From Podospora anserina (lineage: Eukaryota), in NCBI GenBank assembly GCA_017654855.1, contig CM030338.1:372001-436000 (forward strand): a DNA stretch of 64,000 nt. Reading direction: 5' to 3'. The notes below the pieces were generated by a model. That model worked only from the letters and a program-made list of their open reading frames with translations. It was not told where the DNA came from and made no database searches. Numbering within the stretch: the first letter of the stretch is position 1; each line of letters starts with the position of its first letter. This document shows positions 39,537-60,200 of this stretch, in pieces. The position numbers and the translations under genes were made by a program.

Positions 39537-41522
39537 TCAACCAGAAGAACGCATGACCTCGTGACAGAAATGCCAGTAGCTGATCCTTGGCTCTTTGCCT
39601 CCCCTCTCCTCTCTTTCCCAAACCTCTAGAGGCTTATTCAGGACTTCATGTGATACTTCGTGAAAGTAATCGATGGTAGGAGATTGTGCATCACTGTCAT
39701 CGCCAGTGTGGGGTTCGGGGGCTTCCAGAGGATCGAGTCGAGTGCTGCAAGCGCTGAAACTCATCTTCTTGTAATACCGGTCATCCCCCAGCACCATTTT
39801 CTCCGCCGCTTCCTTGAGCCTGTTTTCCTGAGATCTGATGAAGGCATAGTACTTTTGCACATCAGTTGCCATCATGGTCATGGTATCCTCCGTGTACGCC
39901 CAAGGATAGGCCAAGTGAGCGTAGAATCGATGCAGAGGGCCACGACGGCTATCCTGAAACCGGGCAAGAGGGCTCAAGATGTTGTGGTAGGCCTGCTCGA
40001 TCTGCCTTCCTTGATCGACAGTCAACCTGTCGTGACCAACTGGTGGGGTGCCCGGGGGATTAATCGTGATGACTCTCAGGGTGAGACCTGGGCCGTTGAT
40101 CTTGTCGTTGACATACTTAACCGTGTCGACCCAATCTGTAATGGCCGGGTGGTCAGGGCTGCTGGGCCAAGAGTGATGCATGTAGGCAGGGAACACAAGC
40201 TCAAGAAAGCGAAGAGACGCGAGGCTGTTGGGGGGCACTTGATCCCTCAGAAATCTACTAGCCGTGAGCCGAGTGTTTGGGTAGGTGTCCACCCAGGGCA
40301 GAGATGGTATGATGTCAGGGTCCAGCATGTCGCCATAGTCGTGAACGATGAACCGGTTGGTGGAAAAGAACACGTGCTGAGCCTCGTAGTACAGAGTTCG
40401 GCATACGAGGAAGAGGTCTGTTGGCGGAGCCCAGCATCGACAGTGCGATGAGACGGCAGTGTGTTGCAAACGACAAAAGCAGCCGGCGTGGTAGTTCCCG
40501 GGTGTGATACACTCAAGCCAGCAGTTGTTGAACCGGCATCCGTGGTGATGGTCACGACGGCAAGAAATATGCAGGTCGTTATTGTAGCCCGCCTGGTGCC
40601 GCATCGAATATGTCGGTCGATTCGCCCTATAGGCCTGCCCATCCCATGATACCTCTTTGATGGGGGTAACTAGATTGGTGAAACCCAAGATCCGGAGCCT
40701 CAACTCACGAGGAAGGTCAAGGAAGTGCGAGGCAACTTGTGAAGAACTTGCGGCTGAACACTGGGTTCTTGGGAGAGGTACGAGTCCAAGACACTTCTGG
40801 ACCACTTCATCTACCAGGTTTTGCAGCTCAAAGTCCGGCCTATTCCCAAGTCTGACATGGCAGCCTTTGAGACGGGGCAGCGTAAGGAGAGGCGCGAGAG
40901 CAAGCTTTCCCGCCTCAACATCTCCATGATCAACGTCGCAGACGAAAAAAAGCGTCAGGCGATCTTGTGGTATCTCCGAAAGATGGCGTGCTGCTGCCTC
41001 CCACTTCAACAGCAGAGACAGGGCAGACGGATCTGTGCTGCGCAAAGGGGGCTGGTGAGCTTTGCTGTGGGTCCTTTCACACCAGGATCTTCTGACAGAG
41101 GGGAGCTCGTCGGTTGCCAGGCAGCAGTCAGCAACGTTGTCCCCTCCTGAAGTCTCTTGATGGCAGGATGTATGGTTTAGTACCACCTTGAGGCAGGTCA
41201 GCGAACCCAGAGCTGTACCTGTCAGGGCCAACAGTGGGTCGGAAGGGCCTGGGGAAGAGTGAATGACGAAGATGTTTTCGGCGTACAGCAGACCAGCGGC
41301 CTCTTTATAGATTGTACGGCATGATAGCAAAAGACCATGAAATCCAAGATGTCGTTTTACCAGCTTATCCGTTGCGGAGATATGGTGGTTGCGGTGTAAG
41401 TTGAAGACAAGACTTGCAGCGACATGCTCTGTAGCTGCGACGCCCATGAACTCGTAAATGCGGCGGCGTGTCTTGGGCGAGAGGCGCAGCAGCGGGTTCG
41501 CACGATCAGACCGTAGCAGCAT
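39537..41522 (-). CDS. Fungal hypothetical protein with two F-box-like/2EXR-like motifs and a Cys/His-rich insert
   Basis: LLRLSPKTRRRIY and FLDLPRELRLRIL motifs, each followed by LLxCRxxYxEA...F/Y.xN.F; GCFCRLQH...CRCW cluster. Long intact ORF; first ATG taken as start. Confidence 0.75.
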   Translation of the reverse strand: MLLRSDRANPLLRLSPKTRRRIYEFMGVAATEHVAASLVFNLHRNHHISATDKLVKRHLGFHGLLLSCRTIYKEAAGLLYAENIFVIHSSPGPSDPLLALTGTALGSLTCLKVVLNHTSCHQETSGGDNVADCCLATDELPSVRRSWCERTHSKAHQPPLRSTDPSALSLLLKWEAAARHLSEIPQDRLTLFFVCDVDHGDVEAGKLALAPLLTLPRLKGCHVRLGNRPDFELQNLVDEVVQKCLGLVPLPRTQCSAASSSQVASHFLDLPRELRLRILGFTNLVTPIKEVSWDGQAYRANRPTYSMRHQAGYNNDLHISCRRDHHHGCRFNNCWLECITPGNYHAGCFCRLQHTAVSSHCRCWAPPTDLFLVCRTLYYEAQHVFFSTNRFIVHDYGDMLDPDIIPSLPWVDTYPNTRLTASRFLRDQVPPNSLASLRFLELVFPAYMHHSWPSSPDHPAITDWVDTVKYVNDKINGPGLTLRVITINPPGTPPVGHDRLTVDQGRQIEQAYHNILSPLARFQDSRRGPLHRFYAHLAYPWAYTEDTMTMMATDVQKYYAFIRSQENRLKEAAEKMVLGDDRYYKKMSFSACSTRLDPLEAPEPHTGDDSDAQSPTIDYFHEVSHEVLNKPLEVWEREERGGKEPRISYWHFCHEVMRSSG

Positions 41523-41847: not shown

Positions 41848-43648
41848 TCAGTATTCATCAGCCCAAAGCAGTTCCAGCTTCTGGTTGTACAGCCAGTTAC
41901 TCTCCAGCGGCTCCTCTCGCTCCCGAGATTGTCTCTCGTAATGCTCATCACCTAGCACATATCGCTCCCATCGCTCCTTTAACTCGCACTCATCCTCATC
42001 CATCATGGAACTCCGGTTTAAATAGGCTTTTGACAATTGCCAGGGCACTGGGAAATGGCAATAAAACCTTCCCAGTCCTCCCGGTTCGGCCCCGGTATCC
42101 ATGCCCCAAGACGCAAATGGTGCCATGATGCGTGCATAGCCATCCAAAATCATGTCGCCCTGGATCTTTGTTAAAGTCGCGTGGCTCTCTGGCCAATAAC
42201 CGTTCGGATCCCCCACACATAGAGCCGCAGCGTCAGGGCTGGAAAATTTAACTTGCTATATGCCCATGCCATGGTCTCGGTCCAGTCCTGTGAAGCCAAA
42301 TGGTTTGCTCGGGGCCATGTGAGGTAGCTGAACGGCGGAAGTACGAGTTCCAGAAAGCGAAGATGAGATAGGCACTTTTCGGTAACCACCACTTGCTTTA
42401 AAAAGTCGCAGGCTGCAAAGCTACTATGGGGGTAATCGACTAGATCGGGAATATAGCTAAAGTCGTCCCAAATAACGAAGCGGTTGCGGGAAAAGAAGAT
42501 GTGTTGAGCTTCATCGCAAAGCTTCCGGCAAACGAGAAACAAGTCCGTAGGGGGGCCCCAGCATCTGCAGGATGATGAGACAGAGGTGTGATGAAGGCAG
42601 CAGAAACATCCTATCGGAGCTCTCTGGCCTGAACTCTCCCAACACCAACCGAAACGGTAACCATCCAGAAACTTTGGAGGGCATTGAAGGTCGATGGCTG
42701 CGTATCTGGGTTTCATCTCACTGGCCCAGTATCGTTCGCGACGAGCACCCCAATTGATCTCTTTGAGAGGAGTCACAAGATCGGTGTACTCGAGAATGCG
42801 TAGTCGTATTTCGCGCGGGAGGTTGAGCACATGACAAACAGTCGTTTGTCTACTGCCGAGTATGTTGGAACGAGGTTGCATGTTGCCAGTCAGGTCGGCC
42901 ACCACGGATTCCAACATGCGTTGTACTTTTGGCTCTCGAGCTGCCGACAACCTAACGTGACAATCCTTCAGGCGAGGAAGAGAGCGGATTGATGTCATGA
43001 CAGCCATAGCAATACGTGAGTCCTGGTAAGCAACGTCGCATACAAGAGCAAGCTCCAGACGGCCTGCTGTTACCCCCTGGGATAAGTAGGCAACGGCAAC
43101 CTGCCACTCTTCCAGGATCAACTGGGACCGAATATCATCGCTCTTCAAAGGTGGATTGTGTGATGCCTGCCACTCTCGATCCCCTGGGTATCTCGCAGCA
43201 CGAGGCATGCACACGTCCCTTGCGCAAGCATCCTCAGACCTAACATTCCACCCAGAAGAAAGAGGGGGCTTACGGCAGCAGCCAACGAAAACCTTATCAT
43301 GGCATGCAGCCTGGTTGAGGACAATCTTGAGGCAAGTTAAAGAGGCCAGCGCGGTAGTTGGCAAGGAAAGTAGCGACCTCAAAGAGCCAGGCCCGGAGTA
43401 ACAGATAACAAATATGCTTCTGGAATACAGCAAGCTCGTCATCTCGTCGTGAACGGACTTGCAAGTGTGCAGCAAGCTCCAAATGCTCCTCTCACCCCCT
43501 CATTGTCTTGAGGCTCTCCACAGCTGTTGAGATGGAAAATCAATCCTAGTGTGGTAGAATAGGGAGAGCTGGCGCGAGTACATAGGTAATAGATATGATT
43601 TCGGACGCTAATCGGAAGTCGAAATAAAGGACTGTGTAGGGTAGACAT
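41848..43648 (-). pseudogene. Tandem paralogue of the 39537-41522 gene, two frameshifts
   Basis: Three ORF pieces (43439-43783, 42171-43475, 41848-42216) align consecutively to the neighbour. Frame breaks near 43480 and 42215 lack intron signals. Confidence 0.78.
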
Positions 43649-44463
43649 AATGGCGGTAGTTGGGATATCGAAGAAGCTTGGAGTTATTGCCCGCATGTTG
43701 GGGAGAAAACTTTGAACGCGGCGCAACGACAGGAGCCACAGTGCTAACACTGTGCATATAACTGTGAAGTCGACTGTGCCCAATGCCGGCGAAGGTTGTT
43801 ACATATTCACGGTCGATTCAGGTTATTAATTACACTGAGTATATTTGACTTGTCGACCCCAGGCCAAGGACGAACAGGCATTTGACTATCAGATATAATC
43901 CATGCAAACCAACAACGCACATAGGATACCTAACTTCTGAACCAATGCCTGCGTTGGCATTTCGTTTAAACTACATGTGCACCCACTGTACATAGGTTCG
44001 ACCGCATGGTCACGGCGGTCCCGGGCTCCAAGAGACCGACAATGCGGTGTTTACCCACCTAGGTAGGTAGGCGAAGACCCCGTCGACCTGTTTTGAATCA
44101 GGCATGTCGTTATCGAAACTCGATGTCTTGAACATCAAATCTACACCCGGAAATACTTACTTAAAGTCCACGATCCTCTGTATGTGAGCCTTCTTGCTAA
44201 GTCTTAAAGTACAATATTCATTTTCCTTGACGTTGATCAGCTTACACTATCTATTCATTTTCCTCGCTGGCGAGGTTCATGCTCGAATCATACCCTAGCG
44301 GGCAAAGCTCTTCTCAGAACATATTGGTCCCTGTGGCACTATTCATATATCCCCTTTCTTTACCATCGACCCTTTGATTCCCCTTGCTCTGTCAGACTTG
44401 TTCGACATTGTCCATATACCAGGTACCGGCTTACAACCACCTACATCCAACAGGGGCTTCGAT

Positions 44464-46172
44464 ATGAATTTTCTTGGCAGTATTCCGCCTAGCCTAGAGC
44501 TCAAACGTCCCGAGAATGGAATAGGGTTGAACGAGGCAACTTGGTACCGAAGCTGGATCGTCTACTCAAAGCCCAGCTGGCGTGATCTAGAAGACATCGG
44601 ACGCTGGGCGTACGACGACATCAACTGGGAAATACAGAATGCAACACGCGTGAACCCGGGCGCCTACACCCGCAAAGATACCTTAGTTGCTATTTTATGC
44701 CACCAGGAGAAGCGTGGACAGTATTGCATCAGGCAGTCAATGATCCCTCGAGGGCGGGTCTGAGAAGGCATGAGGGACTTTGGGCCGAGTAAAGCGCCAT
44801 CCTGGTGGAATGCTAATAGCATACCGGGAAGACCGGGCCCAGTTTTCCCTGGTGGATATCATGCAGAAGATGCTGTTTTATTTCGCCATGAAAGGGAATG
44901 GCGAAAAGCACACCCCACCCGTGATCCTTTCGACGATGGGCGTCTCCGGATGTACGTCTATGGGCTCCAGGCAACATTGCAGGGAAACGCCCTAACGTAG
45001 CACGCCAGGTTAACCCATGTTCCAAGAGCCAGTCCAAGCAGCCGCGTTGCCAAGATGTACTGGCGGATTTGCGTGTACAGTTCTTGGTACGAGAGAGGGT
45101 AACGGCGAGGAGCAGGGATGCCCAGGCCGACACAGGAAGTGTTATTAGCGGGACCAGTAGTCTCAGCAATCCAAGGAGCGAGCAGAGTTCCAGGAGCTTT
45201 GGCAGAGGACCCGATGTGTACGACACTGGTATTCCCCTCACGGCTGACGACTGGGCCGAGATTGACCCAAACAAGTACGACGTTGGTATACCGCTGAGCT
45301 CCCAGGATTGGAACTCATTATTAGATACATCACTTCCGGCAACAAGGGGCGAACCCGACTCCGATCAATACCGGGGACGTGGGAGTGATGGACCATCAGC
45401 ACCACCGCGCTCCAGATCACGCCACTCCAACGACCGGATTCGGCGATACGAGGACAACCGTATTAAGAGGGAGCCCTCACGATATTAACAGGAACCCTCA
45501 CGATATGAACAGAAACCCTCACGATATGAACAGGAACCCTCACGATACAGCTCGCGAAAGAAAGGCCGGGCAACTGATGAGGACTATGATAGCTATGGCC
45601 AAGAACATCCCAGCAGCTCAAAGACGAAGCACGACTACCACAGTAAATATCAGTACGATGGCTCTGGATATTCCGGTGGTAGTTACAGCCGTGCGCTCCC
45701 TCCCCGTTCAGGGGGCGATGATGTATACCTTGATCTGGTCAAAGAGCGTGGCTCTGCGAAAAAGACCCCAGTCCTGACCTCTGGACTGGAAAAGACAATG
45801 GGGCGGTTGGACCTTCGAGAGACGCGGTCGCCCAAACTGTCAGCCGAGCAGACGGTGGGCAGACCCAAGTCCAACGCCACCCCATCCGATATTTCACCCA
45901 AAGTGTCGGCCGGTCGATCTTTAACAGCAGGACTCACGCAAGAAAGAAAACCGGAAAGAACCAACCAAAGCCTTATTTCCCCTTCTCGTATCTCGCAAAC
46001 AGGATCAAGCGTAACGGTTCCAACGAAATCAACATCCATCATTCCGCTAACTCGTGACTTGACTAACAATGTCCAATCTGCCAACAAACCGCAGACATCA
46101 GCTACTCGACCCGCCCTATCCATTGGCGACAGGAGCAGCAAAGGCAACTCTGCTGCAACGCGATCTGTTTAA
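44464..46172 (+). pseudogene. Disrupted paralogue of the deaminase-like gene at 49983-51188
   Basis: Reconstruction keeps QSMIPRG, WW, YHAEDAV, RMYVYG, PC-x9-CQD. Broken by TGA 44761-44763, a frameshift ~44965-44997 and TAA 45486-45488. Confidence 0.75.
45465..45548 (+). repeat. 21-bp tandem repeat x4 (consensus GAACAGGAACCCTCACGATAT), encoding EQEPSRY units
   Basis: Four adjacent units read directly. One unit begins TAA where the others have GAA. Confidence 0.9.
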
Positions 46173-46686
46173 ACCACTTCTGCTTCTACCACAAACCAGC
46201 GCAATAAGATAGACAGCCCACCGACGAGCAGGACCGCCCGAAATTCTGGGTCCGCTACGGGGTCTCTTGATCGAACCAATCGGCGTAACCCCGAAGGAGC
46301 TTTGCAGTCTCGGGCAGTAGCGGAAGTGAGGCGAGTAGAACGTCAAGTGAGACTGACACCTCATTGATTCCATTTTACAGGTAGGTACCGCGAGATGGTT
46401 GAACAGTTTTGGATACGCCTTCTGGACAGGATATTGATGTAGTTTTGCTGTTGCGTTCTTTTTGCGTTTTTTGTGGTTTTGCAATTTCTTTGATCTCCTT
46501 GGTTCCTTTTCTTTTTATTTTTTTATCTTTCTTTTTGTTCTGGCTAGAATGTCGTGTTCATTGTCTCTGAGTTTGAATTTCATTTTGTTGTATGGTAGTG
46601 TTAATGCATTTCTATTGGCTTGGTGCTGGAGTGCTATTGTACATGAGTTTTCTTGCTTTGATCACGCCTGTGTACCGAGATAGAAA

Positions 46687-47754
46687 TTAGTTGCTCGTGT
46701 TCCAACCAAGCTCTGCTCCTGTACTACGCCCTTCTGTGTTCGTCCGGGAAACAACTGGTCGTCTGGTAGACTTGACATGCAGATACCCAGCAAAAGGTAT
46801 TGAGGGCGTTGTCCCATCTACTGGTAGCGATCCACTGCTCGAGAGAGGAAACGGCGGGGGTGGCATAAGACCAACATCCCTGTGAGGCTGGTAGTGCACT
46901 GGCCCTTGAAGAGGGATAGGTGATTCGAAGTCCCCAGCCATGTCTGTTGAGCCCATTTCTGACGTGGGCAACGTCGGCATGCCGGTGTTGAGAGGGCCTC
47001 GCGGGAGTAGCAACGGAGCTTCGCGGCCTTTCTGAGATGCCCGACTCTCTTTCCGCCATCGATTTGTATGCGAGCGGGCGTTGGACTGAATGGTGCGGAT
47101 GCCAGCCGACATACACGCCGCCTCAACCACCTCCCATTTCTCCCCCACCCGATCCGCCAGCGGAGTCCAAATCTGCTTACGCAGGGCCATGTAATCGTGA
47201 GAAATGCGCTCTAGCCTTTGACTGTCTTGTTCAAGTGCGCCTCGTCTCTCCATAAGCCGTTCGTATCGTTTGCGGCACGCATTAGCCGTCTTGGTCGGAA
47301 AGTAGGTTCGTTGCAATTCCACCCAGTGCTTGCCACGGGACCGCGCCAGTACAAGCGTTCTATCATCCGCCGCACTCCAAGTTCCGTAGTTGTAGGCTGA
47401 GTGAGAGTACTCTGGAACAACAACATCATCTTCTGGGGGCAGTTCCCCTTCCCCCTCTGTATCTCTGTTTTTGTCCTTGTATCCTGCAGTGGCTCTGGAG
47501 CTTTCGTTCTCGCTAGACGTTCTCGGCGCTGGCAATGGTATCCCATCATATGAAGTGACTGGAGGCGCCATTATCGACTGCAAGGAGTACTGCCAGCTTG
47601 GCTCTTGCGAAATAGTCGGCTGTGGCGCATGTGACGAGGCCCCATGATAGCTGATCTGGTCGTCGGTAATCCAGCCCCTGGAAGATCCGGGTTCCTCTAT
47701 TAACGGAGGTTCTCCACTTCTGGTTGGGGGCTGAAGGCTTCGTGGTCTTGACAT
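46687..47754 (-). CDS. Myb/SANT-like DNA-binding domain protein
   Basis: GTWSAADDRTLVLARSRGKHWVELQRTYFPTKTANACRKRYERL motif, followed by WTPLADRVGEKWEVVEAACM. Confidence 0.82.
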   Translation of the reverse strand: MSRPRSLQPPTRSGEPPLIEEPGSSRGWITDDQISYHGASSHAPQPTISQEPSWQYSLQSIMAPPVTSYDGIPLPAPRTSSENESSRATAGYKDKNRDTEGEGELPPEDDVVVPEYSHSAYNYGTWSAADDRTLVLARSRGKHWVELQRTYFPTKTANACRKRYERLMERRGALEQDSQRLERISHDYMALRKQIWTPLADRVGEKWEVVEAACMSAGIRTIQSNARSHTNRWRKESRASQKGREAPLLLPRGPLNTGMPTLPTSEMGSTDMAGDFESPIPLQGPVHYQPHRDVGLMPPPPFPLSSSGSLPVDGTTPSIPFAGYLHVKSTRRPVVSRTNTEGRSTGAELGWNTSN

Positions 47755-48916
47755 TGCTTTGGCTTGGAATCGCTACTTCGGCATTTCACACGGACGAAAG
47801 ATCCTGTAGCGTTCAGAATCACTTTCCGACCTCTCCCTACTGCTGAGCTGGCATCCTGAAAGAAGCTGCAGGGTTTCTGAGCTGGCCAAGCAACATATAC
47901 CGACAAGAGAAAGCAGCTCGCATGGCTCGAACCGCACTGATGAGGTAATCCTCCCCATCTGCGCAGATCGGATCCATCAGGCAGACTGGGCGAATATCTC
48001 TGACGAAGAAATCGACCTGGACTTTTCGCAAAATGGATCTTCGGGCGAATGAAAGCGGGTCCGGAGGCCGCTGCTGCTGCATGACGTGCCGCATAAGTGA
48101 GGGTGTGGCTCTAGAGTATCCTGCATGGACGAACGAGAGGCCAGACTTTCACCGAAAATGAGACCTGGTGGAGCTGATGTTGCAGGTTCGGAGATATTCT
48201 CCAACGGGTTGAGGCTTGCACCTGAAGCCATCTTGGAGTCGCATGTGATGACATTTGTAGAGTTAATCCCCGGCCATAGTAGGGACCTACCTAACGTACC
48301 TAGGTAGGTAGTCCAATCGACGAGACATACTCCGAATCCAAATCAACAGACATAAAGTGCTACTGATTGTGTTTTAGACCACGTCTCCCTGGTGCCTAGC
48401 CATGAACAGCGGCAGCTATCTTTCTCCAGAAAACCCTCCTTTCTTTGACTGCTGGCCAGCCATGCAAAGCTAACGCATGCAGCCTCTATCGAGCTGCATC
48501 GATGGTGCCATGCATGGACCAGTCGTCCAACCAGTCAGGGGGCTTCGGGACATTGGCAAGCGAACTTTTTGTCTGCAGGGTGTCACTGATCGCTTTGTCG
48601 ACGGCTCGGAATTACTGTCATCCAGACTTATTTGCAGATTCCTTCTGCTTTGACGCCCGCTCAGACATCAAAAGGGTCATTGCACATGCATCTGAATATC
48701 AACTTCGCATAACTCATAACTTCATACCTGCCTTTTGTGCACGGTTATGCCACCCCTTTTCCTACCCCTTTTTTCGGCCCCTTTTACTTACCCCACCTTC
48801 AAACAACCGTCCTTACCCGCAATTCATTGCGCACACAAAAAGACTTCACAGTAAATATCCAAAATTTCTGTCTCATGTTTTCCATGTTGCGATGGATGGC
48901 AATCAAGATGACAGGT

Positions 48917-49600
48917 TTAGCTCTCCCTACATCCTTCTTTCTCGGACACTCCCCCCATCCTCTCCAACACACGTAAACATTCCGTAGCTAATCCCCTGAA
49001 GTCTCCTTGAAGACTACAAGCCCCGACGTCTTTGTCTTGCTCTACGTCACGTCTTCCATGTGTCATTTTTGGGTATTCTTCACACTCGTTCGCTGAGCGG
49101 GGTAAGACGACTTCGCGACAACGTTCCTCAGCTTCGACAGCCATTTCCACTAGAATCGTGTCGACATGTCCTCGGAGCCTGATCATCTCCAGCTGTTCTG
49201 AGAGACTTGATGGAGAAGGTATCAAGTGAATTTCTAAACGCCCTTCCTCGTTACTTTTTCCAGGTATGAGAGGTTGAGAGTTCCAAATGATAGATGAAGT
49301 GGACTGGTAGGATCTGATAACAATCTCCGGGTCTTGGAAGATTTCTGGAGATGAGAAAAAGATGTGATTGAGGCAAATCGCATCTAGAGACCGGAGAAAA
49401 TGAGCGATAGATGGTGTGATTGTTTTCAAGGAGTGGGCAAAGGTGGTTGCTTTGGACATCGGCTGTTTGAAAGTAGTATGACCTTCGCAAGTTGGGTTGA
49501 ACGATGTGCATTCGGTGCTGCTGGCAGAGCTGTAGATTGTAGAGTGGAGTGTGATGAGAATTAGAACCGTGGGGCATGGGTCAAGATCAAAAAGATTCAT
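48917..49600 (-). CDS. Hypothetical protein (227 aa)
   Basis: ATG-initiated ORF with plausible composition. No family recognised. Confidence 0.4.
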   Translation of the reverse strand: MNLFDLDPCPTVLILITLHSTIYSSASSTECTSFNPTCEGHTTFKQPMSKATTFAHSLKTITPSIAHFLRSLDAICLNHIFFSSPEIFQDPEIVIRSYQSTSSIIWNSQPLIPGKSNEEGRLEIHLIPSPSSLSEQLEMIRLRGHVDTILVEMAVEAEERCREVVLPRSANECEEYPKMTHGRRDVEQDKDVGACSLQGDFRGLATECLRVLERMGGVSEKEGCRES

Positions 49601-49982
49601 GGCTTGCTCCTGAAACTTGTGGGGGAGGTGATTGGTGGGAGATAGTAACAGATTTTGCGTTGTTGCGAGAGCGAAGGATTCTATTTGACTGCCACCTATC
49701 TCTTCGTTTCTTATCGACTAGTTTACGGGCTCAAAGGAGGATTTGCTGACAAAGTTGAGCAGAGAATGGAATGCCTTGACGCTTTGACTGTTCCATTCAG
49801 GCTATAAGGTACCTTTACAATTTGAGACAAGCATAATGGAGCACGCGGAGCAAAGAAGGATGCGACATTTGTATGAGACCAGCTACATACTTCTTGCCCC
49901 TGAACCAAAACGCCTGACGCCATGATTGTTACCTTGCCTCCCTAAACACCGTCATATGCCATTTATCTAAAGCCCCTCTAGC

Positions 49983-51188
49983 TCAACCTCTGATCACACG
50001 ACGAACCTCCCCATATCGGTCCCGCTCATCACGATAGACAGCCTCTGTTGTACGCCTGCTGCTTCTTCCGTCATCGCGGTAGGGATCCCTTTCAGAGCGC
50101 CTGGTGCTCGAACGGCCATCATCGCGATACACATCCTCCCTCCGAGAAGAAGAACGGACCTCTTCTTTGCGGCTCGAGTGACGGCCATCCGTGCGTACCG
50201 TGGTATCATCCCGCCTGGAACTCTTGACGCTCATTCCGGACATCTTCATGGTTAATTCCGTCATACCACCAGGATGTCCAGGCCGTGTTGAATCGGATCG
50301 GCGGGAGCTGTCTCCATAAGGGTCCCCTCCTCCAGCACCAGGCCGACCACTGCTGGGACCCGAGCGGCGGCTTCCATCACCGCCGGCTGGAGGTGGTGCA
50401 CGGCTGCTTCCAGCACCGCCGCCACCGCCACCACCAGCGCTGGTAGAGCTCGTTGCTACCCGGAGAATGCGCGGCTTGATCCAAGTGCAGCCAAGGCGGG
50501 CGCAGATATCCTGACAGCAGGCATTCTTTTGATGACCCGGGGCGCAAAGCTCCTGGACTCCGATGTAAGGGTCCCTAGTCTGCTGCTCGCGAGGACGGTA
50601 GTCGTATCCGGGTCTGAATCCATACACGATGATACGGATAGGACCATCGCGCGCGTAGAACTTTCCTCCACGGATGAACCTATCGCGGTAGTTTCGCTCG
50701 ACGAGGTAGTAAAGGACATCCTCCGCGTGGATGTGGTCGGGGTGGGGCCCGTCTCTGTTGCTTCTGACCTCCCGCTGGCGTGTGGTAGGGTTGGTGACTG
50801 TGACGAAGGACGAAGCAGCATGCCACCAGTTCACTGCGTAGGTGGAGCCGTACTGTGAGATTTCCTGTCGGAAGACACCTCGGGGAATGGTGCTCTGGTA
50901 AATAACACCGCCGTCAAGTCCAAATGGGATGTACATGGTCGCAACCAGGAGAGATCCAGTTCTTCTGCTTTGTCCGATAAAGGCTCTGGATCCGTACTTG
51001 TTATCGAGCCAGTCATATGACTGTCGTCCGAATGCTTCCAGCTGCTCATCAGTAGGAGGGTAAGGATTATCCCACATGATCTCCCTCGTCCAAGTTGCAG
51101 CGCTGACGCGGTCAGTACCTTCAAGTCTCTCATCAACATGAGTGACCATCAGGGGAGGGGGAGAAGGGGTGCGGGATTGCCTGGACAT
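49983..51188 (-). CDS. Putative zinc-dependent deaminase-fold protein with disordered G/R/S/D-rich tail (401 aa)
   Basis: Intact single-exon ORF; HAE at 50721-50729, strand IRIIVYG, then C-x9-CQD; low-complexity RDDGRSSxRR repeats at the C-terminus. The fold assignment is inference. Confidence 0.7.
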   Translation of the reverse strand: MSRQSRTPSPPPLMVTHVDERLEGTDRVSAATWTREIMWDNPYPPTDEQLEAFGRQSYDWLDNKYGSRAFIGQSRRTGSLLVATMYIPFGLDGGVIYQSTIPRGVFRQEISQYGSTYAVNWWHAASSFVTVTNPTTRQREVRSNRDGPHPDHIHAEDVLYYLVERNYRDRFIRGGKFYARDGPIRIIVYGFRPGYDYRPREQQTRDPYIGVQELCAPGHQKNACCQDICARLGCTWIKPRILRVATSSTSAGGGGGGGAGSSRAPPPAGGDGSRRSGPSSGRPGAGGGDPYGDSSRRSDSTRPGHPGGMTELTMKMSGMSVKSSRRDDTTVRTDGRHSSRKEEVRSSSRREDVYRDDGRSSTRRSERDPYRDDGRSSRRTTEAVYRDERDRYGEVRRVIRG

Positions 51189-52693
51189 TTTCAGCAGGAA
51201 TTTTGCAAGACAAGAGAAACTGAGATTGAACCCTGTTCAAATAATAACAAATAAGGTAAGGAATGGATAGTGTGAGTTGAAGATCTCGACCGGCGAGATG
51301 GGAAAGAAAGACGAGAATGACAGAAGTGATCGAGCTGATGCTGACGAGGTATTGAAAGGGGAAGAGTGGTGACACAAGTCGGGTTGATATACATTTTCTA
51401 TCACGCCCTATGATCTCATAGTTCTTCCACATTCAACCCAAATATATCGCCAACGTAGCATTAACAGCCGTGGCCATGCCCAGGTTTAGGTGGCCCATCT
51501 TTTTCGCTATACGACGCCACCGTTCTATCATGAAGTTCGAGCTATAGTGGAGAAGAAGCTAATCGCAGAAGGGCTGATGGGCCTCTGGGAGGTCACAGTC
51601 TCCCCACCTTGACCAACATATGTGTTTCTGTAGGATTTTGACTCTGGGACCAGCCTGAATATACGGTTAGAGAACCCATCTTTGACCGACCCGCCGCGCC
51701 GTGCCTTACGGGGGTAGCCGAAGATCGAAGATTCCATTACGTTTGATGGCGGCACAGCCACCTATCCACCACCAACTCGGTACTCGGCACGGACACAAAA
51801 TGAAGTAAGACATGGCGTTCTGCTGAGTTGGATCAGGTCCTGATTTAGCTAAATCCCATCGTGGTAGCTTGACCCACAATTATCGAAGAGCTGCATGACT
51901 GCTTGTCGATATATATCGGTTAAGAAGCATTTACAGCCTTGTGTCTAGTGTGGCAATACCAGCTATATATTCAGTAAGTTGGCTCCTGAAGCTTTCCGTT
52001 TATTAACTAGATCTAAGGCTTCTTTTTTCTTACCTAGACTTCACCACCTACCTGACTCATAATATCTGGTTGGAGCTGACGAGGCACTTTCTTGCTCGTA
52101 ACTGGCTTCCATCGGGTAGCTGAAGCACATGCTGTGCCGCCACCACCACTGACCCATGTCCATACAGCCAAGTTCCATGTCTGTGGATATCTGGATGCAC
52201 ATCTGCGCCGCACTAAGACTGGTCATCTTGAAACTTGTGTCCTGCCTCGACCAAGAACGGTGGACCACCTGGGCCCTTCACTGGCCATTCGTGCCCGTCG
52301 AACATGGTAGCTTATTTCAACATGTTGTTGAAATGATCGTTCGATAACCTTCAATGAGAAAGGTTCAATGAGAGATAAGGTGCCCGATATCGAAAAATGA
52401 TCAGAAGCATTTGCACATGAAGTTTACAAAAGTGATTGGTTCAAAAAGACTGCCGGAAATCGCCCCGGTGCATTAATCGAGCAGCGATTGGTTGAACCAG
52501 CAAGCCCACTGACCCACTTGGGCAGTTTCTTGGGAAATCTGACGACATGGTTCGAGTTGCCAACTTCGTTGAACCAACCACCTGCCGAAACCAAGTCCGC
52601 TCGAGACTTCAACCATCATCACAAGGCTACCAAGTACACATGTAAAGTGCCTCCGCATTCGGTACCACAATGGTGCATCCCAAACACTTTCAT

Positions 52694-53750
52694 ATGGAGC
52701 TCGACGAGCACGCGCTACTGGAGGAATTCGATGAACGAGTGAAAGAAGGTGTCGTCATATACGAAGGTGACCATCAAGTCATCAGAGAAACGTACAATGG
52801 CTTTCCAGTAAGTTCCCAGGTTTGTTCCTGAACGCCATGCTGTTCACTCACGGTTAACACTCTGACTTCAGTTCGAGTTCCGAATCCTCAAAGGCCACGC
52901 TTCCAAACCCGAAGTCTCCAGTTCTGGCAGTACCCCCTCGGCTTCCTCAGCCTCTATCTCGAGCAATGGGTCGACAGCCCACCGGCCAAAAACACCCGAA
53001 TACCTGCCTGGAAGCGACATCAGTCTCACTGGTTTTGAGGTCCGCAACTCCAATGCCGATGTCGGTCTCGGGCACTACATGATCTTCAACAAGTTTTGCG
53101 CTGCCCGGCCTCATTACTTGCTCCTGACGCAAAATGGACACCGACGACAGCACGAGAGCCTGAATTTCGACGACTTTGGTACTTTGTGGGGGGTATTGTC
53201 GGTGTTGAACAAAGACTGGGAAGCGAAGAAGCCTGGCGCCAGGCGGTACATGGGAATGTTCAATTGTGGAATCGATAGCGGGTGCAGCAGGTTGCACAAG
53301 CACATGCAAGTACTTGCAGTTCCAGATGAGGCCGAGTTTGGACTGTGGCCGGACTCGGCTTCAAAGTACGAGGAACCAAAGTGCATTCCGTTCAAGTACT
53401 ACAAACATGATATTGATGGGCGTTTGGATGAGCTCTCCAGAGAAAGAGAGGCCTGGGAAAGGTATTTCGAGTTTACAGCTGTTGCGCAAGAAGCATTGAT
53501 GAAGGCAGGTCATATCCCAAACGCGCCGGATGGGGTTGATGCTACCGAGATAGTTCCACACAACATTATTCTTACGCGGGAGTGGCTCCTGGTGATCCCG
53601 AGAACCCAAGCTGGAATGAACGGAGCTGATGCTAATGCTGCAGGGTATTTGGGCATGGTCTGGGTATCGGATGAAGGCAGGATGAGGAAGTGGACAGACC
53701 AAGGCCCTGTCGAGTTGCTAACGCGTCTGGGCTTACCCAAAGACATCTGA
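52694..53750 (+). CDS. Ap4A phosphorylase / ATP adenylyltransferase (Apa1/2-like, HIT superfamily), 2 exons
   Basis: Exon 1 from ATG 52694, intron ~52808-52871; NKF, HYLLLT, FNCG..SGCSRLHKHMQ (HxHxQ), HNIILTREWLLVIPR, NAAGYLG. Confidence 0.88.
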
Positions 53751-53866
53751 AGTCCGCCGTCTTCCATATCCAAGAGTTTTATAGTAAGCAGATAGACTGA
53801 AGATGTCTGTTTACCAAAGTGACTTCACAAAAGACCTGACTCATTCCTGGATATGTGTCAACAGCC

Positions 53867-54965
53867 TTAGCTCATCATCACGACTGCACTATTGTTATCC
53901 GGCCTCCCCTTTGACACTCGTCGAATTGCCCGCCAGGCAAGATCAAACCTCTTGTCGTTCTTCCCAAACTTGCACATGCTCGAATGATCACCTCCCATCA
54001 TGACCGCCTCCTCATGTGCTAGCCACAAGACGGCCGACATTTTCTCCACCACCAGGCTGCCCAAGAGACGATGCGGTTGCTCTTCGTAAAAGCTGGCAAT
54101 GGCGTACTGATTGACATAAGGCTTGAAGTCCTCGGAGAACTCAAGTAGATGTGGTGAATGGGTTTCGAGCACATTGATGAATCTCGACTTGGGCTGGTTG
54201 GTGGCTGTTTGCACAATGCGTGAGACAAGACCGAGCCACTTTGTTTTGTCAGCACCTCGGTGAGGGGTTCCAAAGAAGACCTATCTTCTGTCAGCACTGA
54301 CTGGGAGGAGTTTATACGATAGGGAGGTACTCAAATGACTTACTATGCCTCTGGTGCAGTCCGCTATGTCAGCGTACCAGGGTTGTGAGAGTCGCCGTCG
54401 GTTCTGATTAGCTGTGGATATGGCCTGTTTGATGACAATGCCACCAAGACTATGCCCAATAAAGACAATCGAGCGGCCTTCTGCTTCCTAGATTCCGATG
54501 TCAGCGAGCCTGCGTGAAGACGTTTGCATATCAAGGTCACCTACGTCTTCCCGCACATTCCACAACTCTTCCAGAAGTTTTGCGGCATTCTCTTCTATCC
54601 CGAATGCTGACCTGTTGCCAAAGATGGATGAATCATACTCAAAGGTCATGATGCGAGCGTTTGGCAACTTTTCGGGCAAAAGGTCACGCAGCCATACTGT
54701 GTCTGTGTCGGTTTTGGTAGCACCCTTCCGTAGTAACCTACTCCAACGGCGAACCGGCTTGGCCGGAGCGTCCGTGTGAGTCCAGGTGTGAAGGTAATGT
54801 CCGTTGAGGCCATGTACAGCGATGATGCTTATGGTCAAGGTGGTCAGCGTATTTGAGACTGATAGGCATTTCAAAGGTAGGTGAGAACTACTCAAGCTCG
54901 ATGAGGCCCTCTTTGGGGGCATGTAGAAGGTGTATAGATCCAGATTGTTGGGAGTCGCCGGCCAT
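53867..54965 (-). CDS. Stand-alone SesB/DUF676-like alpha/beta hydrolase 1, 4 exons
   Basis: Spliced: MAGDSQ..IELD|IIAVHGLNGH..WLRDLLP..ARIMTFEYDS..|..IVFIGHSLGGIVIKQA..|VFFGTPHRG..DHSSMCKF. Confidence 0.88.
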
Positions 54966-55828
54966 GATTGGGAATCACGACGTGGCAGTGAACTAAGGTG
55001 ATGTCTCTTGTTCAACTTTTGATGTTTAGTTTGACTGACTGGGGGGCTCTGGAATGCGCGTATAGTATTATACGTTTCGGCTATCATGCGTCTTAATATT
55101 ATAGGTTCCCTTCCTATTTCCTGCTTCCATATCAAGTTGGGCACCCGTTTGCACTTCGGTACAGCGAACCTTCAGCTTCTCCTAGCACAGACAGAGTGAG
55201 TTGGCAAGGTCAAAATGACTCAGATTAGTCCCTTGCAGAGTCTGTACCTCTGACCTGGACCACTTGGAAGCACCAGATGCATCGCCACCTTTGCGGGCGT
55301 GAGCTTGTAAGTCGGGCAGGTATCAGGCAGTGTTGGTTGCAGCAGGCACAGGCCTCGGGTCTGATTCGACCAATAACCGCTGGATCCAGTATTTGCTTGG
55401 CATAGGACTTTTGATGGCCATTCCACCATTTTTGTTGTCTTGGTTATTGCACAAAAGAGAACAAGTCAACATAAGGTAGTGGGGGCATACGTTAGTCTCC
55501 CTCGAGCCGGACTTGCCGCATCAAGTTACCTGGGTGCGTTGGGTTGGGAATTTGCTCCATTTCTTGCTTGCAGTCTTACAGGTTGTCAAGGTTGATTGAC
55601 TACCCGATCCAAAAGTCAACACCAAATCACCTTGGTTTGTCGGCTGGATAAGGTCAGCAGGAGCTTATAACAACCACCGACTCCAGCCTACACATGGCTT
55701 CGACAGCTTTCGGTCCGATTCACAGGCCACACCTCCACACGTGACCTGACCCTCGCTACCCAGCCGCCATTCTACATTGAACTCGGGCTATATCGACACT
55801 ACGACGCAGATTTCAAGCCTCTGAAGCC

Positions 55829-57161: not shown

Positions 57162-57299
57162 ACCATTTTGCTAGCTTTTAGACATATAAAAACGGTGGCT
57201 TTGTGTCAGCAGCGATGTTCATACTCCTATATTCTCTAACTCATGTCTGTCGCGTTGCGGGTATCAGTAGGTATATAAGTCATCAACAGTAGCCGAATC

Positions 57300-60200
57300 T
57301 CAGTCAGAGTCAAAATCCTTGCCTCGGACTGCCTTACCTGTGATATTCTCGTTAGCTTAGGCCAGACCAAATCATCCGAACTGTGGTGCGACGTACCAAC
57401 ACTACTGACTGCTTTCTTGATATTCCCGAAATAGCTCCTTTGTTTCCTGTTCTTCTTCTTCTCGATGTATTGTATCCTGTCGATCTGCTGCACCTCTGGT
57501 TTGATCACTACTTTGACAACGTCCCTCGGAACTTCTCTCACGACGTCCACTTTGACCTCTCTTACGACGTCTACTTTGACTTCTTTCACGACCTCTTTGA
57601 CAACTTGTTTCTCGACTGGAACCTCCTTTACGACCTCTCTCTCCACCTCAATAATCTCCTTCTCAATGATGATCATCGGTTGCGAGGATTGCAATCGTAT
57701 CTTATCTTCCTTCCTGCTGGCCCTCTTGACGTGTCCGGATCTCTCGTGCGGAGGAAGGGTGCAACCCGATGTATCGGCCTGGCGTCGGGTTGTCTGGTGC
57801 CGTGGAGGCAATGATCCAGAAACCTCACTGTCACCGCCTCCTGGGTTGTCAGGCGGGCTATTGACAATCTTGTCCGCCAGACGAAGGTCCTCCTCGGGGA
57901 AGGCTTGCTCCGACCCCCTTCTCATGAACCACCACACTTCGGTCCAAGACTTGGCACGACCATCCCCTTCTTGCGTCAGCAATTCTTTCTGTCTCTGGGT
58001 GTCTGCGTCAACGTCTTCCCCTGCTTGATGATAGTGTTTGTGCCAGTATAGCGAAGCATAACGCATGAACGGGCGGTCCTTCAATGTCTTCCGGATTCGA
58101 GACTCCCAACTGGTTTCGGAGCTTTCTCCAGCCGGTCGTTCTGCCTCTTGCATGCTGAGGTACATTGTGCAACTGCTTGCGAGTAGGCCTTGAGGGGTGA
58201 GTTCCTCTGGGTTCTTCTCAGCAATAGTTTCGAGCTTGGTTGCAATATGGCTCTTGGCGGTTCGGTGAAGAGACGAAAGGCGTCCATCAGCGAAGTTGAC
58301 AAGCGGTCCGCAGTAGAAATCGACTTTGGCCTTGAGGTTCTCGTCGAGGCAATCGGCTAGCTGTTTCTCTGTGATGATGGCTCCTGGGAACTTGCGCATG
58401 GCTTTGGCCACTGCCAAAGCGGTGTTAAGTTCCGTGATGTTGAGCGCATCTTCCTGAAAGGCGGCCCAGGTGAGGACATTTTTGATGAACCGGGATGTGT
58501 CTGGATCGTAGCTGTTTAGCAGGCGGTCTGAGTGGCGATCACAGAGATGCTGTGTATCATCTGGAATCTCTTTCAGAGCCTTTAGAATGTCGTCTTTGTC
58601 CTTCAGGCGTGTGCGTTTCAGCTCTTCGCTTCTTAGAATTGACCGCAGATACGAGTCATCGACCCTGTTGCCCTTGATGTCACCCAGCACCCTCGTTCTG
58701 AAATCTTCGTCACCAGGTGCTACCTTCTCCAACAGACGTGTCAAAAGGCCGCTGATACTTCTCATAATGTCTGCCTCATTGTCTCCTCGTTGAATGGGGC
58801 AGTCGTTGATTCCCAGGCTTTGAATGTGCTTCTGGATCGTTGAGTTGTGTTGGGAGACCACCAACAATCTCAACTGCTTGGACTGACCGAGGCCTTGGTC
58901 TAGCTTCTTGATACATTGTAAAAAGGCCGTTTGGTCATCAGAAGGGATTTCATCTAGCCCGTCAACGACAAGCGTCATGGTGTGTTGATATCCCATGATC
59001 ACTCTTGCCATTGCTATGGGCCACAGCTCCACTAGCCTTTCTGCCGTCCACACCGATCCTTTTGATCTTTCTCGTGATTGAGCATCCTCAAAGGTTGGCA
59101 GGAGGAACTCCTTGATGATTTGAGGCTGAAGTCGCAAGGCCTGGTGCAAAGTAGATTGTAGAAGAGCATCGATGTTGTTTCTTGATGCATACATGTTGCT
59201 GAGAAAACAATGAATGACCTCCTGCCTTTCGTGTGGAACCGTGCTGTCAGATCGGACAATGTTGTTAGGCTGTAGGATGTGTGTAATGATGTGCTTGGTC
59301 AAGAAGCTTTTACCGCTGCCTGCCGGGCCGTGTATCCACAGCTTGCCATTCCCAGCCTCCCCTTTGCACCAATATTGAAACTCGGGACGCTCTTTTATCC
59401 AGTCGCCCGTTCCAGGAGTGTGCTGTCTCCCGAGAAAGTAGGCGTGGAATTTGTCGGAAGAGAGTGAATACAGGGCTCTCTTGGCTAAGTAACCAGCCAT
59501 GTCTGAAGGCATGTAGAAGTCTTAGTCAACATCCACATGAATAGACTGGACACGGAATCTCTGCATACGTACCCAGTGCATTTGGTTTGTCTTTTTTGAG
59601 AAACTCGACTCCGTCCCAAATGAGCCGAAACGCACCAGTTTCCTCTCTGGTAAATTGGCAGATTGTGAGATGGTTACCTGCGAGCATGTCGTGCCTCTCA
59701 TGACCATGATGCATTTTCCCATAAAGACTATTCACAAGCTAAGTAGTGAGGGAGCCTGTCAGCAGCTGCATTTCAAGCTTTGGGCTTTTATGGTGCATAA
59801 CTGGACAAGATGGAGAATACTCTAGGATACTGCAAGAGAGAGGTAGTGAAGCATGTACATACAACATGTTTCAGACCCGGCATTGGTTCTTCTTCAACAA
59901 ATGTAACAAATGCTAGGCTGTCATACAAGGGCTTGAAATCTTCTGTGATATCTCGGAGATTATCACAGTTTTTCTCAAGTTGTCGGACCATGGTGCGGGT
60001 GGGCATTGCTCCCTTTACTGGAGCGTCGTGTTGAAGCACAAATCGAGCAAAGTCCCTCCAAGTGTTCCTATCCAGCCCATGGTGAGGAGTTGCAAAGAAC
60101 ATCTGAGATTTCATTAGCGTCAGCTTCTCAGTGTTAGCCACCCCGATGACTGTTGCCGGTTGAAACTTACAACGCCGCGGGATGCCTCCCAAATCCCCCT

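Follow-up and report, generated by a model that had tools for sequence, protein, structure and literature searches.

Background

In the zinc-dependent deaminase superfamily, as set out by Iyer et al., 2011 (NAR 39:9473), the [HCD]xE ligand and the first Cys ligand sit at corresponding helix N-termini; the first of these motifs is reported there as variable within toxin clades, and pocket-capping inserts and loss of C-terminal elements are described for clades of the toxin type. In Table 1 of that survey the CDD/CDA clade is given PCxxCR and a strand 5 with E at its end, and the survey describes the OTT_1508-like (PF14441) and ascomycete DYW-like groups as fast-evolving, lineage-expanded fungal deaminases with proposed roles in conflicts with non-self or selfish elements. 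The present study concerns a gene of Podospora anserina at 49983-51188 on the minus strand of a 64,000-nucleotide stretch (the window; GenBank assembly GCA_017654855.1, contig CM030338.1, positions 372,001 to 436,000). Residues ~30-240 of its product, P0001, are predicted to adopt the cytidine-deaminase (CDA) fold, and the protein is probably, though by no means certainly, a zinc-dependent deaminase that acts on a polynucleotide and carries a regulatory disordered tail. The parts of the gene are as follows.

49983..51188 (-): intact single-exon coding sequence of P0001, an ATG-to-stop frame of 401 amino acids plus stop
50469..51101 (-): deaminase-fold domain, residues ~30-240, from the AlphaFold2 model and VIA-align
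49986..50453 (-): low-complexity R/S/G/D-rich tail, residues 246-401, with YRDDGRSS-RR-like repeats, from composition

Members of the family

An exhaustive phmmer search with residues 1-245 against 1.84 billion representatives gave 21 matches at E <= 1e-3, and a profile search added seven further members. The ~26 fungal relatives collected come mainly from Sordariales, plus Epichloe and Aspergillus; those that can be named belong to Podosporaceae, Chaetomiaceae (Parachaetomium, Staphylotrichum, Chaetomidium), Epichloe bromicola and Aspergillus pseudoustus, and every one with a source name is called "hypothetical" or "uncharacterized". The alignment used throughout, A2, has 27 rows, one of them truncated, with relatives 23-38% identical to P0001 overall. 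Left out of it were P0002, which is near-identical to P0001, P0016 and P0021, which are bacterial-looking repeat proteins matched in five short stretches, and P0008 (PODANS_4_4180), which is without the catalytic core. As judged by eye, four of the 27 members (P0015, P0029, P0030 and P0031) have hydrophobic, signal-like N-terminal peptides and no tail, and several others, of 203-226 amino acids, consist of the bare domain. In P0024, residues ~385-498 hold three Y-x-C-T-[VM]-x-x-G-F repeats in place of a low-complexity tail, possibly a small beta-rich binding domain.

The initial annotation, made by reading the sequence, recognised no named family here, and the searches agree: Pfam gave no deaminase or other credible family at E <= 1 in any of 20 members. 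Its sole match, PF08675 RNA_bind, came at E 0.05-0.2, below the cut-off of that family, and was set aside as noise. NCBIfam and PADLOC had no match for eight members, sequence and profile searches of the PDB returned only matches to the low-complexity tail, and the A2 profile had none in 401 genomes of one bacterial phylum, a result that is uninformative by the tool's own note. Taken over Pfam (0/20), the PDB profile search (tail only) and hhalign (E 0.1 and 0.5), no significant match to a curated deaminase family was found, so that the evidence for the assignment is structural. No published description was found for the family or for guessed gene identifiers; supplementary expression tables could still list the gene.

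Predicted fold

AlphaFold2 supplied with A2 gave a model with a predicted local distance difference test score (pLDDT) of 88.6 and a predicted template-modelling score of 0.86; from the single sequence alone the pLDDT was 32.4. The elements of the alignment-based model, in residues of P0001, are:

34-39: strand
47-69: helix 1
79-88: strand 1
94-99: strand 2
about 104-150: insert of two helices and a hairpin
155-171: helix 2
184-191: strand 3
192-222: insert, with a short strand at 209-212
225-231: helix 3
234-236: strand 4, the last element before the tail

Helix 1, strand 1, strand 2, insert, helix 2, strand 3, insert, helix 3 and strand 4 thus follow one another in the order of the three-layer alpha/beta/alpha core of the zinc-dependent deaminase superfamily. 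When the model was aligned by VIA-align with 48,161 representative chains, 26 reached Z >= 5; 23 of these belong to the zinc deaminases of the CDA superfamily, and the other three are 7f00_B, 7mgq_A (ATIC) and 5xkq_A. The best match is blasticidin-S deaminase (3oj6_A; Z 8.5, root-mean-square deviation 3.2, 105 residues aligned), with cytidine deaminases at Z 7.5, 7.0 and 6.6; others at Z >= 5 include guanine deaminase, ADAT2/3, TadA, dCMP deaminases, RibD, yeast cytosine deaminase, a type VI secretion (T6S) cytidine-deaminase toxin and DddB. The ADAT2/3, ABE8e-chain and RibD entries are ones that we take to be deaminases. DddA, the ADARs, the APOBECs and the DYW domain stand lower in the list, at Z 3-4.

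The deaminase fold proposed in the initial annotation is borne out by this confident model and by the make-up of its matches. The comparison with Foldseek that had been suggested along with it gave no PDB match at E <= 0.001. The best Foldseek rows, to Ap4A phosphorylase, HEBP/SOUL and PrimPol, lie at E 0.1-1 with TM <= 0.29 and were rejected as the fold; rival folds taken from the Foldseek top 1000 and re-aligned with VIA do not exceed Z 3.9. The case rests on the uniform deaminase list and on its contrast with these rival folds, since the best score itself is a typical one.

Predicted active site

Two short segments hold the residues expected at a deaminase active site.

50718..50729 (-): H154-A155-E156-D157 at the start of helix 2, with H as predicted zinc ligand and E as predicted catalytic proton shuttle, from alignment and model
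50514..50546 (-): C215...K221-x-P223-x-C225, with two conserved Cys, from alignment and model

In the model H154 lies immediately before helix 2 and E156 in its first turn, and the [H/C/D]xE motif that the superfamily has at the N-terminus of this helix is therefore present. A155, E156 and D157 are each found in 27/27 rows of A2, and position 154 is H in 24, D in two and C in one. Helix 3 opens with C225, and C215 is in the loop before it; with the truncated row excluded, each is conserved in 26/26, accompanied by P223 in 22/26 and K221 in 21/26, and the tail-less members of 203-226 amino acids keep the E, the [H/C/D] and both Cys. Elsewhere in the domain A83 and P102 are invariant (27/27), W121 is kept in 26/27 and W33 in 25/27. 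That all three changes at position 154 lead to other zinc ligands (D, D and C), together with the invariant E and Cys, gives the pattern of a preserved metal-dependent active site. The conservation of H, E, C and C on which the initial annotation had proposed to check its assignment is thus largely there, with the variation confined to position 154.

The two Cys do not form the usual pair. They are separated by 8-20 residues (nine in 13/26), so that the widened spacing noticed in the first reading extends through the whole family, and position 228, the site of the second Cys in PCxxC, is V or I in 26/26. With a single Cys on helix 3 and the other 8-20 residues upstream, the family is a variant and not a canonical member of the superfamily; the arrangement is read as a loss of the second helix-3 Cys and the probable recruitment of a replacement from the insert between strand 3 and helix 3.

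Relationships to known deaminase clades

A language-model feature search, whose results are leads only, showed deaminase families in eight of the nine rows shown: the nearest named clusters are of YwqJ-deaminase (0.86, 0.85, 0.85), followed by MsddA-like, OTT_1508 (0.77), Toxin-deaminase and SsdA_C. With the YwqJ clade (PF14431) the fungal proteins share an insertion that follows strand 3 and precedes the Cys motif, and a domain that ends after strand 4, and the H/C variability at the first zinc ligand is another common feature (Table 1 of Iyer et al., 2011, NAR 39:9473). They differ in having C-x(8-20)-C where that clade has CxxC, and in being mostly cytosolic with long disordered tails, whereas the YwqJ domain is a cassette at the C-terminus of RHS or secreted toxins of bacteria. 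None of 20 members matches PF14431, the glycine of the YwqJ-type Gx[CH]xE occurs in only 3/27, and hhalign showed no significant similarity to the 53 gamma-proteobacterial YwqJ proteins compared; as far as these sequence comparisons can tell, membership in the YwqJ clade fails. The insert at 104-150 is itself present, and no column in it has His in at least eight of the 27 rows.

The CDD/CDA clade furnishes the best structural matches (3oj6_A, 3b8f_A and 3dmo_A; Z 8.5, 7.5 and 7.0, with 105-110 residues aligned at deviations of 3.2-3.8) and shares the core helix and strand order and the Glu-bearing helix 2; sequence identity over these matches is 11-15%. Its enzymes are compact, of ~130 amino acids, with C[H]AE, PCxxCR and a C-terminal strand, whereas P0001 has HAED, one helix-3 Cys, two inserts of ~30-47 residues, nothing after strand 4 and then the disordered tail. 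The hallmarks of that clade are accordingly replaced or missing: HAED stands in place of C[H]AE, and there is neither a CxxC nor a strand 5 to bear its E.

Among the groups known from fungi, the ascomycete DYW-like proteins likewise have strand 3 and helix 3 separated by a large insert, and OTT_1508 also has a Lys shortly before the Cys motif, corresponding to the K221 seen in most members here. OTT_1508 is placed in the helix-4 division, with an extended loop from strand 4 to helix 4, and carries an alpha+beta domain at its N-terminus, whereas the P0001 model is without a helix 4 after strand 4. In DYW proteins the motif is HxEK and ankyrin fusions occur; here it is HAED, its D invariant, and there are no repeats. 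Neither PF14441 nor PF14432 was matched in the Pfam search of 20 members.

Deaminases in which the zinc ligands are not a CxxC pair are represented by ADAR and ADAT1, whose two Cys lie far apart in the sequence. In the ADARs the extra spacing is downstream of the helix-3 Cys, in a domain of ~380 amino acids, whereas in the fungal family the extra Cys is upstream; the ADAR domains in the structural list have Z 3.3-3.7. The mutagenic AID/APOBEC deaminases are likewise distant in structure (Z 3.0-3.3). A leucine-rich export signal at its C-terminus keeps AID cytoplasmic, and a motif in the tail of P0001 fits the pattern of such signals. All in all, the family is best described as a fungus-only, unnamed clade of the deaminase superfamily with a YwqJ-like architecture and an apparently non-canonical metal site.

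Proposed activity and alternative explanations

In the activity that we propose, one Zn2+ would be held by H154, C215 and C225 and would activate a water molecule, with C215, from the insert between strand 3 and helix 3, substituting for the lost second Cys of PCxxC. E156 would shuttle protons, and the exocyclic amine of a base would be hydrolysed, most likely converting cytosine to uracil, with adenine as a possible alternative. The substrate would be a polynucleotide, RNA or single-stranded DNA, and not a free nucleoside. The two pocket-capping inserts and the lost C-terminal elements are features of the toxin-type clades; the signal-peptide-like N-termini of some relatives, and the character of a family that is patchy, fast-evolving and leaves pseudogenes, are further points behind this role. 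The R/S/G/D-rich tail with its export-signal-like motif would set localisation, or the binding of a partner or of RNA.

Several results weigh against a deaminase. The canonical PCxxC at the start of helix 3 is absent, and the loop between the two Cys (216-224) is modelled at lower confidence, with a block pLDDT of 79. Only 27 sequences stand behind the model; Foldseek found nothing in the PDB at E <= 0.001, its best row, at 0.11, being a non-deaminase; and the top Z of 8.5 is not above the usual best value for models that have no Foldseek match, among which 7-8 is common. With hhalign, 53 gamma-proteobacterial YwqJ proteins gave a probability of 0.55% and E 0.1, in a weak alignment where the two HAE motifs do coincide, as do P-x-C and P-A-C; 30 TadA-like proteins gave E 0.5 in the wrong register, and the single E. 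coli TadA gave nothing.

The small number of sequences and the lack of Foldseek and hhalign matches, along with Z scores of 5-8.5 that are "middling" by the tool's own note, would be explained if a shallow alignment had driven AlphaFold2 to a generic alpha/beta sandwich, with the HAE and Cys residues coming from an unrelated metal site. We think this very improbable: 23 of the 26 best chains among 48,161 fall in one superfamily and other alpha/beta folds stay at or below 3.9, the motifs lie exactly at the N-termini of both zinc-ligand helices of that superfamily, and the independent sequence-feature search arrived at deaminases as well. It is rather less far-fetched, though still unlikely, that the fold is kept but hydrolytic deamination is not, the domain having become a module for binding or scaffolding (as in an RNA-binding adaptor that works through its tail) or catalysing some other reaction on the same scaffold. 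The loss of the canonical CxxC, an invariant D157 that is outside the canonical motif pair [HCD]xE...PCxxC, and a conserved tail motif suggesting that function resides there too would fit such a change, and some deaminase domains of the superfamily are inactive (Iyer et al., 2011, Table 1). Against this, E156 is invariant and position 154 admits only H, C or D, the two Cys do not vary even among sequences 23-38% identical to P0001, and members that have no tail at all retain the active-site residues.

We regard as similarly unlikely a deaminase of small molecules or of free nucleosides or nucleotides, whether in pyrimidine salvage or in the detoxification of nucleoside antibiotics in the manner of blasticidin-S deaminase. 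Its appeal is that blasticidin-S deaminase and bacterial cytidine deaminases are the three best structural matches (Z 8.5, 7.5 and 7.0), and that the gene has metabolic neighbours in Ap4A phosphorylase, GNAT, hydrolase, 2OG oxygenase and P450 genes. Yet the domain stops after strand 4, without the later elements on which the CDD/CDA clade draws, has two large inserts and 156 residues of disordered tail, has relatives with signal-like peptides and has no CDA match in Pfam, and the family is patchy and includes pseudogenes, unlike housekeeping salvage enzymes.

Beyond the polynucleotide deaminase that we favour, a more elaborate picture may be drawn tentatively, and we would not expect it to hold in all its parts. 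In it these proteins are fungus-specific nucleic-acid deaminases with a novel zinc site that are used in conflict, the signal-peptide forms of Epichloe and Aspergillus being toxins and the cytosolic forms of Sordariales serving to mutate or edit RNA or DNA of foreign or selfish origin, with the RS-like tail and its export signal as a restraint; they might then also offer a new base-editing scaffold. That the family supplies the C-to-T deaminase step of premeiotic or vegetative genome defence is a long shot, because its distribution is patchy.

The C-terminal tail

Residues 246-401 include R 30, S 27, G 27 and D 15 among 156, in keeping with the R/S/D/G-rich disordered tail described at first reading. 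Most Sordariales members have such long low-complexity tails, which cannot be aligned except for one motif.

50226..50264 (-): tail motif M-T-E-L-T-M-K-M-S-G-M-S-V (MTELTMKMSGMSV), residues 309-321

Written as hydrophobic-x2-L-x3-M-S-x-hydrophobic-x-hydrophobic, the motif is found in 11 of the 29 family sequences scanned (P0001-4, 6, 7, 10, 11, 12, 14 and 18), always inside tails that are otherwise unalignable; the pattern was written after the motif had been seen, and being post hoc it carries no estimate of chance occurrence. Its spacing fits the consensus of leucine-rich nuclear export signals, and on this ground residues 309-321 resemble such a signal.

Paralogues in Podospora

The Podospora lineage has at least four loci of this kind: the gene at 49983-51188, a broken copy 5 kb off, PODANS_4_4180 and a tail-less paralogue of 205 amino acids, QC764_209325.

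44464..45100 (+): broken paralogue, with TGA at 44761-44763, TAG at 44998-45000 and a frameshift before 45003, its motif blocks still recognisable

The dead paralogue reported at 44464 in the initial annotation is confirmed by these two stops and the frameshift, and by tblastn, in which 44527-44970 on the plus strand is the sole other significant place in the window for P0001 (30% identity over 169 columns, E 6e-6). The in-frame TGA comes directly after IPRGRV, and in frame +2, entered before 45003, the copy reads P-C-x9-C-Q-D-V-L-A-D-L, with the Cys codons at 45018-45020 and 45048-45050. The intervals that interrupt it measure ~30 nucleotides around the frameshift and 17 nucleotides around the TGA; fungal introns are longer than this, and for that reason we infer a pseudogene. 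The blocks that had been pointed out as shared by the two copies are all there (ATW, LExxGRxxYD, LVA, QSxIPRG, WW, HAED, [IM]xVYG and C-x9-C-QD...L), and they amount to more than chance because they recur in the relatives. Only one low-depth contig, from one run, lies on the pseudogene (X2, 44281-44841, depth 3.7).

Two copies of a Y-D-x-G-I-P-L-x-x-x-D-W motif lie in the tail of the pseudogene (~45215-45325, plus strand, frame +2), and acidic-aromatic repeats of a similar style occur in the tails of P0006, P0010 and P0017, making up a second tail motif. PODANS_4_4180 (P0008), on Podospora anserina chromosome 4 outside the window, is annotated as a protein of 353 amino acids; the N-terminal helix is retained in it, as is the Cys motif near the C-terminus, but strand 2, the insert, HAED and strand 3 are absent. 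Either the copy has decayed or its gene model is wrong.

The gene and its transcript

The minus-strand frame at 49983-51188 is, as first described, single and uninterrupted, and contigs of all four sequencing runs span it without a joint. The gene is conserved across Podosporaceae, with orthologues of 401-406 amino acids in Cercophora samala, Triangularia verruculosa and five further species of Podospora: P0001 is 98-99% identical to "hypothetical protein ..._704075" of the five Podospora species and 93-95% identical to the Cercophora and Triangularia proteins. Over the domain, 231-244 of 245-246 residues are conserved among the orthologues. The tail is less conserved than the domain in the two more distant comparisons (Cercophora, domain 233/245 and tail 136/158; Triangularia, domain 231/246 and tail 116/167). 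The N-terminus of P0001 is not hydrophobic as read from the sequence, no signal-peptide predictor having been used, which agrees with the earlier statement that a signal peptide is lacking.

49629..51605 (-, strand taken from the open reading frame): apparent transcript, from a contig of run X1 and contig ends of runs X2 and X4, depth 11-33

Expression was judged from four runs of four studies aligned to positions 43000-55000. Run X1 gave a contig at 49629-51605 of depth 14, contigs of X2 reach 51614, one of X4 that ends at 51608 covers part of the frame, and cover by X8 is partial too. Their label "RNA?" is a guess, none of the four being recorded as RNA, and this counts against taking the contigs for transcripts. 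The runs are RNA-like in their patchy cover, their empty intergenic bins and the seven GT..AG or CT..AC intervals of 57-151 nucleotides that they skip in neighbouring genes, and the deaminase-fold gene appears to be transcribed at a modest level as a single-exon, unspliced RNA of ~2 kb. At 50370, which is the third base of tail codon 273, all four runs have A instead of G, and one has a 15-nucleotide insertion behind 52219; both look like strain differences.

Neighbouring genes

The initial annotation had placed the gene in a neighbourhood of the conflict type. This holds for one fungal NOD-like receptor ~6 kb away, composed of an NPHP3_N/NACHT open reading frame (57236-59512) and an upstream DUF676/SesB-like alpha/beta-hydrolase fragment (60120-60545, minus strand), and for a DUF7730 match; the genes are otherwise ordinary metabolic ones. 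The context is weak as evidence because the remaining Pfam-matched frames encode ordinary enzymes: Ap4A phosphorylase, GNAT, alpha/beta hydrolase, 2OG oxygenase, catalase, P450 and GMC oxidoreductase. Next to the pseudogene, the frame at 39537-41522 (-) is the one that matches DUF7730 (E 3.8e-9), and the long frame at 42171-43442 (-) has no Pfam match.

No neighbouring immunity gene was found. At 48547-49640 on the plus strand a spliced transcript runs towards the 3' end of the deaminase-fold gene and has no long open reading frame in any frame; it uses two alternative donor sites (joints 48850>49002 and 48912>49000, both GT..AG). A frame of 227 amino acids on the opposite strand, at 48917-49600, has no Pfam match. 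The most deeply covered stretch of 43000-55000 is 46593-47844 (-), with contig depths of 122-652; its frame of 355 amino acids (46687-47754) has no Pfam match and is Myb/SANT-like by eye.

Significance

Podospora is a genetic model fungus noted for its allorecognition, repeat-induced point mutation (RIP) and sexual-stage RNA editing, and newly characterised deaminase clades (DddA, SsdA, MsddA and TadA variants) have given both biology and editing tools. The clade described here has been invisible to annotation, its members all being "hypothetical" and matching nothing in Pfam, NCBIfam or PADLOC, and its catalytic Glu is kept together with three candidate zinc ligands whose arrangement has no described counterpart in the superfamily. 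If the proposed activity on nucleic acids is correct, the family would extend the set of mutators or editors known in eukaryotes and illustrate a way of rebuilding the canonical PCxxC site. The grass-endophyte and Aspergillus proteins that have signal-like peptides would be candidate protein toxins of a type so far known from bacteria.

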